A stretch of 64,000 nucleotides of DNA from an uncultured delta proteobacterium (GTDB lineage: Bacteria; Desulfobacterota; Zymogenia; Zymogenales; Zymogenaceae): positions 352,001 through 416,000 of the forward strand of contig CAVTLK010000001.1 of the NCBI GenBank assembly GCA_963735595.1, given 5' to 3'. The position numbers were made by a program. The stretch's first letter is position 1, and every line of letters begins with the position of its first letter. This document shows, piece by piece, positions 33,001 to 51,000 of the stretch.

Positions 33001-36000
33001 TCTTAAGAGAGAACGTCCGCCCGACGGTCGGAGTGTTGTCGTATATCCTATCGAAAATCCCCGAAACGTGCGTATGACCAAAGAAACAGAGGTCGGACCC
33101 GAGCCGATCTCGCATAAAGGCCATGTTCTCGCGGGCGATTGACAACGTGAGGATATATTCGTTAGGGTCACGGGGAGACCCGTGAACCAGGATCGTCGAG
33201 CTATCAATCGCCCGCCGATCGGGGAGTTTCGCAAGAAAACTGCTATGCGCTTGTGTGAGGATGCCGCGGGTCCAGAGGATTGCCTCCCTGGCAAGGGCGT
33301 TAAAGTCATCGGGTTCCTCGAGTCCGGCCGCCACCCTGTCGTGATTACCCATTACGCAGGGAATCGATCTCTCCCTTATAACCTGAACGCATTCGTTCGG
33401 CCACGGATTGTATCCGACGATATCACCAAGACAGAATATCCTCTGGACGTTCAGCTGCTCCACGGCATCCAGAACGGCCCGGAAAGCTATAAGGTTTGCA
33501 TGAATGTCAGAAAGTATCGCCGAACGCATAGGCCGGTTCCAATCCCCTCCTATCGCGTAATTATCGTATCACGTTCCCGTTAACTTCGACGGTTGTCGCC
33601 GGGAACACGCCGGCATCATGGTATCACTTATTCTCGGGCACATCACTGCAGTCTGTATCAGTTCCACACGTATCCGGAACCTCGATTCCGAGTTCTGCGA
33701 TCCTTTCGGCCGTCGGGTATCCAGTATCAGTATCCCATCCCATCTCGTCGTAGAAGTCAGATCGCATTGTATAAAAACCGTTTTTCTCTATGCCGAGCCG
33801 GTCTCGGTACGGGCCGTCTTTCATATCTCGGGTGAACTGTTCGGGGAGTAAATCGTCGCGTTCCGTAAATCCTTCCCGGTGGTTGTAGATACGGGAGAGC
33901 GTCATTGCCCGTTCGCCGGCGGTAAGGAGCTCGTCGATGTCCGTATTCCACCCGGTTATAGCATTAATCATCTCGACGAGTCTCTCAATATTCATCGGCC
34001 CTCTCGGAGCAAAGCCGAAGTGGCAACAGCCCAGGCAGTCCTGCATCCTCCAGTATCTGGCAGCAATCGCAAAGTTACGCGCTTTGTTGCGCGTCATCTC
34101 GAAGATGTCGGCCGGGTGCTCTATCCCGAGGTGCTTCAATCCAAGAAACACAGCGGACTGGCCGTCGGCAAAGAATGGGTCGTGGGCCGACACCATATGA
34201 TCGGCGCCGATATCGGAGACTGCGTATCCGATGCCGACCCCGGTCTTGATGCGCGGGTCGTGCATCGGGACTTCCTGCTTCTTTACCGTAATAAGGAATT
34301 CATCGGCTCCCCTTCCTATCCGCTCGGCGGCCCTGAAAGACCCCTCCGCCAGAATATCACCAAGCCCCTCGCGGCGAGCAATCAGATCGATTATCGCGAG
34401 AAAGGCATCGCCGTTGCCGAATTCAAGCTTGATTCCGCCCGTATCGTCATCGGTGAGTATTCCCTCACGATAGCATTTCATGGCAAAGGAGATCGTCATT
34501 CCCAGGGAGATGGTGTCCATCCCGTATCGATTTGCCAGCTCGTTTCCCTTGGCAATAACGGTAAAATCATATATACCGCAGTTGGAGCCGAGGGCCGCGA
34601 TTGTTTCGTATTCAGGCCCTCCGTACCGTGAATCGACCGCACGTTTGTCTTGTTTCACGGATACGACACGCTTACACCTGATCGCACAGGCAAAGCATCC
34701 CTTTCTTCCCGTAAGGATCTCTTCGTTATACCGGTCACAGAAGAGCCGCGGACTTTCGTCGGTCACGCCCGTTTCCCAGTTATTAGTCGGCAGGGCCCCG
34801 AACCCTACGAGGGAGTCGACCGTTGCCGCGGTCCCGTACTCGTAGAGCGTCCACCCCTGCTTATTTTCCTTGAACGTCCGCGCGAACTCCCGGGTAATCT
34901 CCCTGAACGCCGCTTCGTCGGCTATCGGCACCTTGTTTGTCCCCCTGACGGCCACCGCCTTCAGGTTCTTGCTTCCCATAATCGCCCCGAGCCCGTTTCT
35001 CCCGTTGTAGTGACCGAACTCGTTTCCGATATTCGCGAAGCGGACGAGCCGCTCCCCGGCCGGCCCGATCATAAGCACACGGGTCTTTACGTCCCCCAGC
35101 TCGTCCCTGATTGTTGTGTCGGCCGGCAGCGCCTCAAAACCCCAGATATGCCGCGCGTCCCGTATCTCGATAGTATCGTCGCGAATCGATATGTAGACCG
35201 GATTTAGCGCTCGTCCTTCGACGATGAGAGCGTCGTACCCCGCAAATTTCAGCTCCGGGCCCCAAAATCCTCCGGCCTCCGACGCCCCGAGCCCTCCCGT
35301 CAGCGGTGATTTCGAAACTGCCGTATAGCGTGGAATGGCCGGTCCCGCCGCACCCGTGAGCGCGCCGGTGGCAAGGATGATAGGGTTTTCAGGAGAGAAT
35401 GGTTCAAGTCCGGGGCGTGTCTCTCGGAGCAGATACGGGAGGGCGAGTCCCCTTCCCCCGAGGTACTTCCTCATGACGCCGTCATCGAGTTGTTCGGTTC
35501 GGCGGCTCCCATCGGCAAGATTAATACGAAGAATCCTGTTCCAGTATCCCCAGGCCACTTACCCTCCGGTTACCATGGGATATATTTCCACTACATCGCC
35601 GTCTTTGAGCGGATAGGGTATAATCAGTAACGATTCTACAGGCTGTTTGTTGACGAGCACCAATCCCACTTCCCCGCGATCGATAGGAAGCCCAAAGAGC
35701 ACATCCCGAATATCGGCGGCTTGAAACGACAGGGTGTGTCTTCCTTTCATGTATCGTCGAAAGGAACCGTACAGGTTCACCTTAACTCTCGGGGATGATG
35801 CGTCAGTTGTCATATATCCTTTTTCTGTTATTCTGCCGATCGATACGATAGCAACGACGTTTCTCAGTGTTGGGCCCTGAGGCTCTCGATGAACGCCTCG
35901 ACCCTCGTCCTGGTCTGCGCCTCGGAGAAGGACCGCTCATCGGTCATGTCGGCTTCGATAATTATCGTCGGTATATCGAGGTCCTTCTGGATTATACGCG

Positions 36001-48000: not shown

Positions 48001-51000
48001 ACGTCCCGTCCGGTGGCCGGAAGGGCAAAACCGGTAACCCCGTGGTAACCGTTTTCCATGCAGATGATCTCGGTCTTATCGGTATGTCCGCGCGCGAGCT
48101 TTACGGCCACCTCAATGGCCTCTCCGCCGCCGCAGCAAAACAGCGAGTATTTCAGATCCCCGGGAGTGATCTGGGCGAGCTTTTTTGCCAGAAGCCCCCG
48201 TTCCCTCACGATCGATATCCAGCCGCCCATGTCGTAGGTATCCAGCGCCTTCTTGAGGCCTTCAACGATCTCCGTATTATGCCTGCCGACGTTGAATATC
48301 CCCGCCCCGGTGACGCAATCGATATATTTTTGCCCCGAGATATCCCAGACCGACGCGCCCTCCCGCCTCCCCTCAATAATGTCGAGGCTGGCATTTTTAA
48401 ACATCCGCAGCGCGAAGGGATTTACGTACTGCCGGTAGTTCTCCTCGGTCTCCTTTCTGATTTCATCCACGTTAGTCTGAGAGAGGATGTCGTCGATTAT
48501 TGACATATCAGACCTCGGGCCAGATAACGGCCGATATGACGTCGATGCGCATGACATCCTCCTGGGTCCCCTTGACCTTGATCTCGCCCCTCAGGTACTT
48601 CTGGGTGGGATTTATATCTCCCCAGAACATGTCGCACATCGTTTCGCTGTCCGTCTCCACGATGATATCGGGCGTTCCGTCCGACCCCTTGTCGTTCTTC
48701 ACGATCTCACCTTCTACCACCTTCATGGTAAAGGAATCACCCGTGTCGACGGCCTTGAAATGGAGCAGCTTAGTCCAGTCTCGCTGCATTTTGCGCAGGC
48801 GCTTATTGGTGTTGCACTGCTCCGTGAAATCGGCCAAGGCTTCCCATATCTCGTCAGCGGTCGCCATACAAGAACCTCCTGTCTATTAGTACTTTTCTAT
48901 TCCGCCCTGTTTCATTATCTCGACCATCGATTTATCGAGGGCATCTAAGACAAAGTCAACCTCCTCGGGCGTGATCACCAGCGACGGCATTATCCTCATC
49001 ACCGAGGGCTCGTTGCCGGTATAGATAGCCATAACACCATGCTGCGCCAGCTGGTAGCTCATCCGCGGACCGATGCTGTCGTTGGTGTACTGTAATCCCA
49101 TCATAAGGCCTTTACGCCTCACCTCCGTGAGAAGCTCGGGGTATTTCTTGATCAGCTCATCGAAACCTTTTTGGAAGCGCTCTCCCATCTTTGCCGCATG
49201 CTCGGGGAGCTTGTTTTTTATGAGATAGTCAATAACCGCCAGCCCGACTATACAGCCGATATCCGATCCGCCGAAGGTAGACAGATGGGTAAAGGCGTGC
49301 GTCATGACGAAATCGCCCAACTCCTCCCGGTAGATTGTCGCAGAGATCGGATAGAGCGCCCCCCCAGTGATTTGGCGACGGTAATGATATCCGGAACGAC
49401 GCCGGAATGCTCGCAGCAAAACATCTTTCCCGTCCGCCCGAATCCGGTTTGAATCTCGTCGAAGATAAGCATCACATCATGGTCGTCGCAGAGCTTTCTC
49501 ATGCCTTTTACGTAATCGTCTGTTGCAAGGTGAATACCCCCCTCCCCCTGCACAAGCTCGATGATAATCGCCGCCGTATCCTCGGTGATCGCCTCTTCCA
49601 GCGCCGAGAGGTTATTATACGGGACATGTTTATACCCCGGCACCATCGGGCCGAAGGGCTTCCGGTATTCATCCCGGCCGATCGCCGCCAGTGAAAATCC
49701 CGTATGTCCGTGGTAGGCCTTGATCGTCGAGATTATCTCGTTTTTCATGGTATAGCCGCGGGCGAGTTTTATGGCAAAATCATTGGCCTCCCCGCCGCCC
49801 GACCCGTACATGACATACTGGAGGTCGCCGGGCGTGATCTCGGCGAGACGCTTGGCCAGGTCGGCCTTGGGCTTGCTGCAGAGCAGAAAGACGCCGAGAT
49901 CATAGTCGTCCAGCGCCTTTTTCAGGGCATCGATAATCTCGGGGTTTCTCCTGCCGACGTTAAATGATCCCGCGGACGTGATGCAATCGATGTACTTCTT
50001 CCCGGTAATGTCCCAGACGGCCGCTCCCTCGCGCTTCCCCTCTATGATATCCAACCCGGCGTTTTTCAATACCCGTGCCTTCTGCGGATTGACGTATCGC
50101 GAGAAGTCAGCCAGCGCTTGTTTCTTTATTTCCTCCAGCTTTTCCTTGGAATCCTTACCGCCCATGTTTTTCTCCGTACTAGATCCTTTCAAAATAGTGT
50201 GCTATATGTCTATGAAAATATCTATTTATCACGAGACCGGCACGTATCTATTGCATCAACCTCGCTCTTTCGCTCAATATCTCGCGCCAAAACGCCCTAT
50301 TTCGGTGATCGTGCCATGACTCCTCTCAGCAGTATTTCCAGCTGAGAGGCAACCAGCGCTTCCAGGTTCAGATTAAAGCCCTTCAGATACCCCATGAGAT
50401 CAAGGATGAGTATCCCCTCTAATCCCGCCCAGAGATTAAAGCTGGCCTCTATGCTGTTAAGGTCGGATGAAAAATCTCCGGCGGACATCCCATCTGCCAC
50501 AACGCCTTCGATGATAGTAACGGCCTGGGTCGTTAAATCTCTGAGCCGTTCTCTGAGATGCTCCGATTGACCCCGCTTGGTGAAACCAAGATCATGAAAA
50601 GTGAGCATCTCGAAATATTCGGTGTAGTCGGTATAGAAGGTAACGTACTGGCGGGCGACGGCCCGTATGCGGTCTTGCGGCGTGCCGTCTATCAGGGCTG
50701 CCTTTTTAATGAGGCCGATAACTACCATGAAGGCCTCTTCGCAGACTTTCTCGTAGATCTCGTCTTTTCCGGAGAAATAGACGTAGATCGCCCCGGTGGA
50801 AAGCTCCGCGCCAAGGGCTACATCCCGCATCGTGGCGCCGAGGTAGCCCTTTTCGAGAAATAGTTTGCGCGCGGAATTCAGGATGCGCTCTACACGCTCC
50901 TGCTTTTCGACCTCAATCCGTTGAGCGATGACGCTTTCCATATGCAGGACACTCAATGGGAATTACTAAAAAGGCCGGTCATGAACATCGTTATGCTACA

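Follow-up and report, generated by a model that had tools for sequence, protein, structure and literature searches.

A row of genes on the minus strand (33624..50941) of the window analysed here, a 64,000-nt stretch of DNA from an uncultured sediment bacterium, may encode a pathway for degrading, without oxygen, a long-chain 2-amino-1,3-diol, for example a sphingoid base; we put the probability of this reading at roughly 45%. The host likely imports a lipid amine and strips its nitrogen, and an altered transketolase (TK) is predicted to cut the carbon chain. Gene logic gives good support to lipid-amine catabolism, because SCP2 folds accompany every enzyme type of the network and alanine dehydrogenase has been recruited in separate lineages. 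Judging from the sequences, a sphingosine-like lipid would be the likeliest substrate of the full row, and a simpler primary amine would fit the widespread core equally. The earlier note had proposed a sphingoid route for the whole cross-phylum module. Its lipid-amine part stands, but the sphingoid route overreaches when extended that far, since most core loci lack a ketol-cleaving enzyme in their neighbourhood and a monoamine-oxidase-type enzyme can serve in the core. For the two-aminotransferase form only, transamination to a ketol followed by TPP-dependent cleavage appears newly supported, because of the changes in the TK pocket, the FumI-family partner of this TK elsewhere, and the complementary distribution of FumI-like genes and the module.

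In the proposed route, the permeases APC1 and APC2 would import the substrate and the 119-aa SCP2 protein would carry it. The aminotransferases AT1 and AT2, alone or paired, would transfer the amino group at C2 to pyruvate and leave a 1,3-dihydroxy-2-ketone, and alanine dehydrogenase would regenerate pyruvate with release of ammonia and NADH. The split TK and its tandem-SCP2 partner would then remove the two-carbon head as ThDP-bound glycolaldehyde and pass it to a sugar-phosphate acceptor, freeing a fatty aldehyde for oxidation by the AFOR enzyme; the HGD pair might deal with a 2-hydroxy acid. Gene content, pocket residues and co-occurrence are the kinds of evidence from which we infer these steps.

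The row runs from a TetR-family regulator to an AFOR-family oxidoreductase in the order of the table. As the earlier note had it, genes g00423-g00441 all lie on one strand; the genes it listed are present, and the MoxR/vWA genes, the HGD pair and MoaD were missing from its reasoning. It had also attributed two broken frames to read errors, and both appear to be so. AT1 is interrupted at a 7-G run near 49360; P0015 and P0016, with 98.9% identity in the N-terminal half, carry an unbroken frame, the same run is present in the long-read relative L001, and the frameshift is probably a read error. Compared with three relatives and with contigs of three sequencing runs, the 258-aa gene carries a single additional base near 43290, again a probable read error. 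A third probable read error, previously unnoticed, splits the first HGD subunit near 38065, where a 384-aa ORF stands at the equivalent place in L275. In the sequencing-run check, at most 0.32 of the words matched, all as contigs.

Features of the gene row and its upstream region (window positions; AT1 is given at its intact length)
Feature	Position	Strand	Remarks
Likely TetR operator, two tandem 9-bp palindromic boxes AACR-N-YGTT	50984..51010	.	overlaps sigma70-like promoter 51021-50993
TetR-family regulator	50297..50941	-	PF00440
AT1, PatA-like class III aminotransferase, 426 aa	48886..50165	-	frameshift near 49360
Stand-alone SCP2 protein, 119 aa	48508..48867	-	PF02036, 26.4 bits vs cut-off 21.3
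AT2, second PatA-like aminotransferase	47151..48506	-	old paralog, ~54% to AT1
APC1, amino-acid/polyamine/organocation permease	45672..47081	-	PF13520
Split transketolase, alpha subunit	44667..45509	-	H26, H66, H100, H261 kept; G262Y
Split transketolase, beta subunit	43637..44656	-	R358A, E468Q, D469A
Predicted tandem SCP2-fold protein, 258 aa	42844..43621	-	constant partner of split transketolase; frameshift near 43290
APC2, second permease	41374..42723	-	42% to APC1
Alanine dehydrogenase	40228..41325	-	TIGR00518, 489 bits vs cut-off 392
MoxR AAA+ ATPase	39219..40160	-	ends in A10 run and stop
vWA frame, no ATG start	38254..39230	-	open from A10 run in -1 frame
First HGD-D, 2-hydroxyacyl-CoA dehydratase-family subunit	37095..38238	-	frameshift near 38065
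Second HGD-D, 2-hydroxyacyl-CoA dehydratase-family subunit	35864..37105	-	best model NF052455, below cut-off
MoaD/ThiS-like protein, 84 aa, C-terminal GG	35559..35813	-	
Aldehyde:ferredoxin oxidoreductase family enzyme	33624..35558	-	PF02730, PF01314

The tandem boxes upstream of the row are likely the operator of its TetR: they are kept in all six examined relatives that carry this regulator and form the only such double site in the 3.6-Mb genome. TetR orthologs are 69-97% identical in 6 related loci and at most 32% identical to TetRs of other clusters; as the regulator is not close to those of FumI-TK clusters, there is no case for a common inducer. A promoter-like site at 40220-40192 (one of 20 such sites, vs 14.2 +/- 4.1 by chance) may separate the MoxR-to-AOR part from the upstream genes; another match, at 38238, runs over a start codon and was set aside. 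The junction of MoxR and vWA at the A10 run is the same in the window and 4 relatives, and two contigs span it without a gap, making the pair a candidate programmed frameshift fusion. The AFOR-family enzyme has both its AFOR_N and AFOR_C domains, its synteny is kept in L275, and it belongs to a family that presumably uses tungsten. The cluster holds no VOC gene.

One known way of degrading sphingoid bases is the sphingosine kinase/S1P lyase route, in which phosphorylation is followed by the lyase. That route has no gene family in common with the row, and neither enzyme is encoded in the cluster. Elsewhere in the genome, which is 93% complete, we found one DAGK_cat gene above cut-off and two PF00282 matches, one tryptophan-decarboxylase-like and one broken; no neutral ceramidase exceeded its cut-off and CBAH gave no match. 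SphBCD of Pseudomonas aeruginosa resembles the proposed system in handling sphingoid bases in a bacterium, but it is a periplasmic oxidase/cytochrome with a predicted PLP aldolase (PMC11398299, in part), and it has no gene family in common with the row.

Both aminotransferases are class III enzymes, with PF00202 above cut-off, the catalytic Lys and the Glu-Arg switch (AT1 was mapped on the intact L004 ortholog, in PatA numbering). The best solved relative of AT2 (g00437) is indeed putrescine aminotransferase (E 1e-92), the E. coli enzyme PatA/YgjG (PDB 4uox; PMC4244111, in part), with which the window enzymes share K300, E243, Q274, F327, R426 and the lack of a carboxylate-binding Arg at 183. 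They differ from it in their SCP2 and APC companions, in AT2 scores far below the NCBIfam equivalog cut-offs (398 bits vs 612 for NF008570; 331 vs 659 for TIGR03372), and in the pocket, where of the anchor Q119 and the entrance residues F91, L419 and F327 only F327 is kept. AT1 has F91A, Q119F, K183H, Y402P and L419G, with K300, E243 and R426 kept; AT2 has F91A, Q119W, K183V, Y402P and L419F, with K300 kept. Both place Ala at the entrance residue F91 and an aromatic residue at the distal-amine anchor Q119, roles assigned in PMC4244111 (in part). Neither belongs to the FumI family, being 22-24% identical to FumI-like queries, and FumI (6hbs) is absent from the best 60 of 73 PDB matches for AT2.

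The 119-aa protein is an SCP2 protein by PF02036. The 258-aa protein has no Pfam match of its own; a model of its L004 ortholog (pLDDT 95.6) matches SCP2 and alkylsulfatase C-domains (E 3e-5), a relative in L230 passes the SCP2 cut-off, and we predict a tandem SCP2 fold. No NCBIfam model reaches its cut-off for APC1. We know of no APC carrier for a lipid.

The split enzyme keeps every ThDP and donor residue of a transketolase (H26, H66, H100, H261, E411 and H473, in E. coli TktA numbering). It departs from the canonical pentose-phosphate enzymes in D469A and R358A, with three of four phosphate ligands (S385, H461, R520) remaining. D469A occurs in all 24 sampled relatives, and R358 is kept in 5 of them. 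When E. coli TK carries D469A, its ratio of propanal to glycolaldehyde activity increases from 0.04 to 0.20 (PMC3657141, in part). The split TK of Carboxydothermus hydrogenoformans (PDB 6yak/6yaj; PMC13663882, in part) has the same two-gene architecture and the same ThDP and ketol-donor residues, but the window enzyme differs in D469A, E468Q, R358A, G262Y, its fixed tandem-SCP2 partner and an acidic C-tail. In 80 other genomes, the tandem-SCP2 protein lies beside this TK in 75 loci and a class III aminotransferase in 43; AFOR-type genes flank it in 5 unrelated loci. The one such aminotransferase searched, from L250, is of the FumI family (6hbs, E 4e-93; next match 3e-46), and the class III aminotransferases beside TK share motifs with it.

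Repeating the scan with the SCP2 protein again gave 34 loci. As reported before, 33 have an adjacent aminotransferase and 33 the permease (L010 ends first), the TK halves follow in 5, a TPP E1 lies directly upstream in 2 (L010, L014) and a glycyl radical enzyme is near in 1 (L016). The claim that SCP2 sits between two aminotransferases failed as a general rule: this holds for 15 of the 34, with one aminotransferase in 18 and a flavin amine oxidase in 1 (L034). For SCP2, 32 sequences gave a mean column identity of 74% with 35 positions invariant, slightly below the 77% and 45 invariant positions given for 18. In a broader locus set, the aminotransferase is present in 161/169, the permease in 139/142, and AT2 in only 52/189 scorable loci. 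An alanine dehydrogenase gene is part of 17 scored module loci, and 12 of these have a single aminotransferase. Four longer SCP2 fusions look like frameshift or assembly chimeras, and that search showed no AT-SCP2 fusion, which is weak evidence either way. In five genomes an enzyme of the monoamine-oxidase family (MAO-B/putrescine-oxidase-like) takes the aminotransferase's place, and this suggests that the core handles a primary amine.

TPP enzymes of three unrelated families stand beside the module: TK in 8 loci, an SCP2-linked E1 in 9 and a HACL/benzaldehyde-lyase-like enzyme in 1. Among loci that lack AT2, 2 of the 61 with wide flanks contain a TPP enzyme, and only 5 of 32 genomes of this type have TK or SCP2-E1. 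As the two-aminotransferase forms fall almost entirely into a single clade, few events underlie their link to TPP enzymes. HACL-like genes occur in 25/50 module genomes, a figure with no background rate that we do not count as support; ALS-like genes near L100, L104, L190, L339 and L343, which are divergent in sequence and encoded on the other strand, were likewise left uncounted. An E1-like gene at 35-44% occurs in 2 of the 5 amine-oxidase genomes, and acidimicrobial E1 fusions (42-43%) stand in other contexts.

The fum cluster for fumonisin reportedly carries a TPP enzyme, FumK; 'fumK' did not occur in the papers searched. To our knowledge, that cluster has no SCP2, APC or split TK. FumI of Sphingopyxis sp. 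MTA144 (PDB 6hbs), a class III PLP enzyme, converts a long-chain 2-amino-3-hydroxy substrate and pyruvate to the 2-ketone and alanine and deaminates a sphinganine-like amine (PMC3136697, in part). Its chemistry is that proposed here and its family is the usual partner of this TK elsewhere, but the window aminotransferases are PatA-like and only ~23% identical to FumI-like proteins. In a sample of 201 genomes from one order, TK is present in 5/5 module genomes (one at only 56%) vs 20/196 others, and FumI-like genes in 19/20 TK genomes without the module vs 2/5 with it (Fisher p 0.016; pooling all two-aminotransferase TK genomes, 6/13, p 0.003; both uncorrected). In a Desulfobacterales-type set, 7 of 9 TK genomes with the two-aminotransferase module have no FumI-like gene. 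The order of G005, with TK in 1/121 and SCP2 in 3/121 genomes, gives too few for comparison.

Besides the TK pocket, its FumI-family partner elsewhere and the distribution of FumI-like genes, the three TPP families beside the module, the changed F91 and Q119 positions and the AFOR-type genes flanking TK count for the sphingoid reading. Several observations tell against it, among them the amine-oxidase swap, the rarity of TPP enzymes in loci without AT2, the near-single clade of two-aminotransferase forms, the R358 and phosphate ligands that are retained, the lack of a known APC carrier for lipids, the negative ceramidase and CBAH results and the promoter-like site that may set MoxR to AOR apart. 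The closest characterised relatives of the aminotransferases act on terminal CH2-NH2 amines, and the host genome already has two FumI-like genes, one next to an SCP2-E1. By CIP reasoning the ketol from D-erythro sphinganine is (3R), and wild-type and split TKs are (S)-selective, so an inversion or an epimerase would be needed; the transketolase would also need an acceptor. We hold only tentatively a broader form of this reading, a modular SCP2-channelled sphingoid route in anaerobes, free of kinase, lyase and oxygen. Here any of three amine-removing enzymes (FumI-like, the PatA-like pair, flavin amine oxidase) would supply any of three ThDP enzymes (a naturally altered and possibly stereo-inverted D469A TK, SCP2-fused E1, HACL-like lyase). 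In this window the PatA-like pair would then act on a branched lipid amine, and a lipid would be the cargo of an APC permease.

It is somewhat unlikely, in our judgement, that the AT-SCP2-APC core instead converts a lipophilic primary amine, be it a long-chain alkylamine, an acyl-polyamine fragment or an arylalkylamine, directly into an aldehyde for AFOR, the TK unit being an adjacent piece of lipid catabolism that receives its substrate from FumI-like or Zn-dehydrogenase genes at other places. PatA-type aminotransferases, the many modules with no TPP enzyme nearby, the compact TetR/Ald/AT/SCP2/APC units of Smithella-type loci, recurrent amidase-type genes (C69-like in 8 loci, penicillin amidase in 5, amidase in 8) and the host's FumI-like and tryptophan-decarboxylase-like genes all suit such a substrate. 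So does the monoamine-oxidase replacement, but that swap is not decisive, since the C2 amine of fumonisin is a substrate of fungal monoamine oxidases as well (PMC9415688, in part). The FumI-like absence in the Desulfobacterales-type set, the E1 directly beside the module and the existence of AT2 are left unexplained. Were the substrate a lipid amino-polyol with terminal CH2-NH2, such as 35-aminobacteriohopanepolyol, transamination would give an aldose and then a ketose for TK to shorten, with HGD and HACL-type enzymes trimming a 2-hydroxy acid. PatA-type chemistry, the SCP2 partners, loss of D469, the Zn-dehydrogenase/HACL/GRE neighbours and the hopanoid aminotransferase HpnO, which we take to belong to the AT1/AT2 clade, would fit; but the cluster has no isomerase, a pentacyclic lipid poorly fits an APC carrier, and in gut Clostridia the same TK stands with a C2-amine FumI-like enzyme, making this very improbable.

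We give a similarly low weight to a small polar amine (putrescine, another diamine, ethanolamine or serinol) with structural or regulatory SCP2 proteins. Automatic names say putrescine aminotransferase and the permeases score weakly to an ethanolamine permease model, but the PatA cut-off is missed, Q119, F91 and L419 are changed, D469A disfavours glycolaldehyde as acceptor, and SCP2 folds go with every enzyme type. Slimmer still is the chance that the row is biosynthetic, with TK adding a C2 unit to a fatty aldehyde and an aminotransferase aminating the ketol to a lipid amino-diol, as in PigD/PigE or the engineered TK-transaminase cascade that works in vitro (PMC5813273, in part). Natural (S)-selective TK chemistry would then need no inversion, and AT2 scores 350 bits to the PigE model, below cut-off; the two permeases, the TetR with its operator and AFOR speak against synthesis, as do the E1 and amine-oxidase partners, which run only in the catabolic direction.

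We found no description of this pathway in the literature searched and, as far as that search reaches, the disposal of sphingoid bases and other lipid amines by anaerobic sediment and gut bacteria is undescribed; the row supplies named candidate enzymes and a regulator for it. Whichever lipid is the substrate, a natural TK with changes at positions that are mutated in engineering for aliphatic aldehydes, together with aminotransferases whose hydrophobic pocket appears widened, may be of interest for biocatalysis.

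With the stand-alone 119-aa SCP2 protein as query, relatives turned up in both the genome collection (245-259 stretches) and the metagenome collection (365), and we took on the best 80 each time. Once repeats of contigs already present were removed (24 dropped from the first two scans), the set comprised 198 loci; the third scan contributed 32 counted as new, although metagenome contigs may still duplicate genomes. In this set, drawn from the best 80 of each scan, 161 of the 169 loci whose flank was long enough have an aminotransferase (AT) upstream of SCP2, and 139/142 have an APC permease downstream. 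The earlier note placed SCP2 between two aminotransferases. This is true of the window but does not generalize: 52 loci carry the second one (AT2), 137 lack it and 9 could not be scored. In five genomes (loci L034 and L288-L291) the AT is replaced by a flavin amine oxidase whose nearest relatives are a bacterial monoamine oxidase, MAO-B and putrescine oxidase; three loci have neither enzyme. The constant unit is therefore SCP2 and APC accompanied by an enzyme that removes amines. In 17 scored loci there is also an alanine dehydrogenase, among them Smithella-type TetR/Ald/AT/SCP2/APC units, and its presence points to pyruvate as the amino acceptor.

Gene order from AT2 to the aldehyde:ferredoxin oxidoreductase (AFOR) is identical in a Ca. 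Zymogenaceae relative (L275), and the order from TetR to MoxR is also found in L001-L004. Three genes of the row (AT1, the gene of the 258-aa protein and that of the first HGD subunit) are broken by single-base indels, which we read as read errors; the earlier note said so of the first two as probable. AT1 is unbroken in 2 database proteins that share 98.9% identity with it across the N-half, while the run at the break also occurs in the long-read relative L001. Relatives lack the extra base in the other two genes, as do contigs of three other runs for the 258-aa gene and of two for the HGD subunit. Ahead of TetR, in 6/6 relatives examined, a double palindrome covers a conserved sigma70-like promoter; it occurs once in the genome, its symmetry is preserved among its variants, and it is likely an operator, as predicted from sequence. 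The MoxR-to-AFOR part may form a separate transcript. The MoxR/vWA junction is identical in L001-L004 and is crossed unbroken by two contigs of other runs, making it a candidate programmed frameshift. Such frameshifting is known from chlD genes.

Features of the window, of its genome (G000) and of homologous loci (L numbers)
Feature	Location	Strand	Content
Gene row	window 33624-50941	-	16 protein-coding units: TetR, AT1, SCP2, AT2, APC1, transketolase alpha, transketolase beta, 258-aa protein, APC2, alanine dehydrogenase, MoxR, vWA, 2 HGD-D subunits, MoaD/ThiS, AFOR enzyme
MoxR/vWA junction	window 39216-39232	-	MoxR 3' end is an A10 run plus stop; -1 vWA frame opens at the run, no ATG
Predicted operator	window 50984-51021	-	double palindrome (50984-51010) over a conserved promoter, upstream of TetR
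Second ThiS-like ORF	window 51200-51556	-	upstream of TetR
NikR, CbiM	window 53074-54513	-	nickel/cobalt uptake genes farther upstream; synteny shared with relatives
L271	G000:C5:474540-480336		a single row: SCP2-fused E1 alpha-beta (frameshifted), enoyl-CoA hydratase, tandem SCP2, FumI-like aminotransferase, V4R protein
L272	G000:C5:35405-42792		second member of the transketolase family (54%), Zn-dehydrogenase, diol-dehydratase-like glycyl radical enzyme (split)
L383	G000:C3:31427-40735		three tandem patatin genes, C69-like hydrolase, TetR, PAP2
V4R genes	L007:8530-10651; also L122, L125		three tandem genes between permease and transketolase
VOC/glyoxalase protein	L273:8580-10202; L378:6199-7822; L379:6049-7658		directly after second FumI-like clade (38-41%)
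ABC transporter	L288:4576-11990; also L287, L290, L291		branched-chain amino-acid-type genes after amine oxidase, SCP2, APC
Rearranged module	L326:1694-8035		AT1 and SCP2, then MFS carrier; AT2 and APC point the opposite way
SCP2 and APC	L330:3594-5310		no aminotransferase; contig labelled Ca. Methanofastidiosia archaeon
HGD-D pair	L008:4181-6609; also L123		~2 kb upstream of two-AT module; different family

AT1 and AT2 are both PatA-like (match E 1e-92), with scores under the PatA cut-offs. Mapped against numbered E. coli PatA, neither has lost the catalytic Lys or the Glu-Arg switch, while F91 becomes Ala, Q119 Phe or Trp, L419 Gly or Phe, Y402 Pro and K183 His or Val. In PatA, Q119 binds the distal amine and F91/L419/F327 form the narrow entrance (PMC4244111). 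The changes would thus leave a wider, more hydrophobic pocket without a carboxylate anchor, which would exclude putrescine or an amino acid as substrate. Such a pocket fits a lipid amine with an alpha branch or none. The AT2 sequences group in a single ancient clade (support 0.95), and AT1 genes from two-AT loci fall almost into a single clade.

Compared with numbered E. coli TktA, the split transketolase (TK) preserves all ThDP and donor residues. S385, H461 and R520 are unchanged, and the substitutions are D469A, E468Q, R358A and G262Y. Among 24 sampled TK relatives, D469A is found in 24/24, and at position 358 Ala occurs in 16 relatives and Arg in 5. In E. coli TK, D469A moves preference toward a non-hydroxylated aldehyde (PMC3657141). 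In 80 other genomes, the 258-aa protein, whose modelled fold is a tandem SCP2, follows TK in 75 loci and a class III AT accompanies TK in 43; the 119-aa SCP2 and APC are found in 0 of these TK loci. The AT beside TK elsewhere is of the family of FumI, the aminopentol aminotransferase of fumonisin catabolism (one searched; motifs shared by the set). Lutispora saccharofermentans m25 (L250) and Oceanirhabdus seepicola ZWT (L269) are cultured bacteria with this FumI-TK version; among the loci listed by the SCP2 scans, none came from a cultured carrier of the SCP2 module. FumI removes the C2 amine of hydrolysed fumonisin using pyruvate, and its substrate is called structurally similar to sphinganine (PMC3136697). 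The TK loci repeatedly contain enal-reductase-like, Zn-dehydrogenase, aldehyde dehydrogenase, VOC and AFOR genes; the VOC/glyoxalase protein after the second FumI-like clade is possibly an epimerase.

A TPP enzyme accompanies the module in 12/24 wide-flank two-AT loci vs 2/61 other wide-flank loci. The recruits are mutually unrelated (TK in 8; an SCP2-linked E1 in 7 two-AT and 2 Bacillota single-AT loci; an HACL-like enzyme in 1, L016), and each type has an SCP2 domain or SCP2 neighbour, some with weak scores. L016 also has, adjoining the module, an ortholog of the L272 glycyl radical enzyme, with a weak N-terminal SCP2 match. Genome-wide, in 50 genomes picked for spread from 87 genome loci, TK (at least 65%) or SCP2-E1 (at least 60%) was found in 14/18 two-AT genomes vs 5/32 others. 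In a 201-genome sample from the order of genome G028, TK is present in 5/5 module genomes vs 20/196 others, and a FumI-like gene in 19/20 module-free TK genomes vs 2/5 with the module (6/13 when all two-AT TK genomes are pooled); Fisher p-values on this distribution (0.016; 0.003) ignore kinship and incomplete assemblies. Upstream of TK in four FumI-less loci lie unrelated genes rather than contig ends. The distribution suggests that the two-AT module can take the place of FumI.

For the window's two-AT cluster, the sphingoid-base (amino-diol) route proposed in the earlier note is still the best single reading, at a probability of roughly 0.45. Its main rival, a primary amine as substrate, is less probable here. 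The characterised AT kin point to a CH2-NH2 amine, as does the swap of amine oxidase for AT, although fungal monoamine oxidases also deaminate fumonisin (PMC9415688). The rival is also favoured in that most modules are without a ketol-cleaving partner. A further objection to the amino-diol route is stereochemical, since by CIP reasoning the sphinganine-derived ketol is (3R) while TKs of the wild-type and split kinds prefer (S); single H26 or D469 changes can invert this (PMC3657141; PMC13663882). The window's genome also holds two FumI-like genes, one with SCP2-E1 and tandem SCP2, and a second TK of this family, so that the window TK could be fed from elsewhere. A search of this genome for ceramidase gave no match above the cut-off; C69-like and penicillin-amidase-like genes are present, and C69-like genes flank the module in 8 loci.

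Our literature search turned up no publication that describes the module or the route. The row resembles FumI-type catabolism in its proposed way of working without belonging to it. Overall, the gene row is likely devoted to lipid-amine catabolism. The sphingoid-base proposal is supported for the two-AT form only; for the cross-phylum single-AT core we would rank a primary amine first as substrate.
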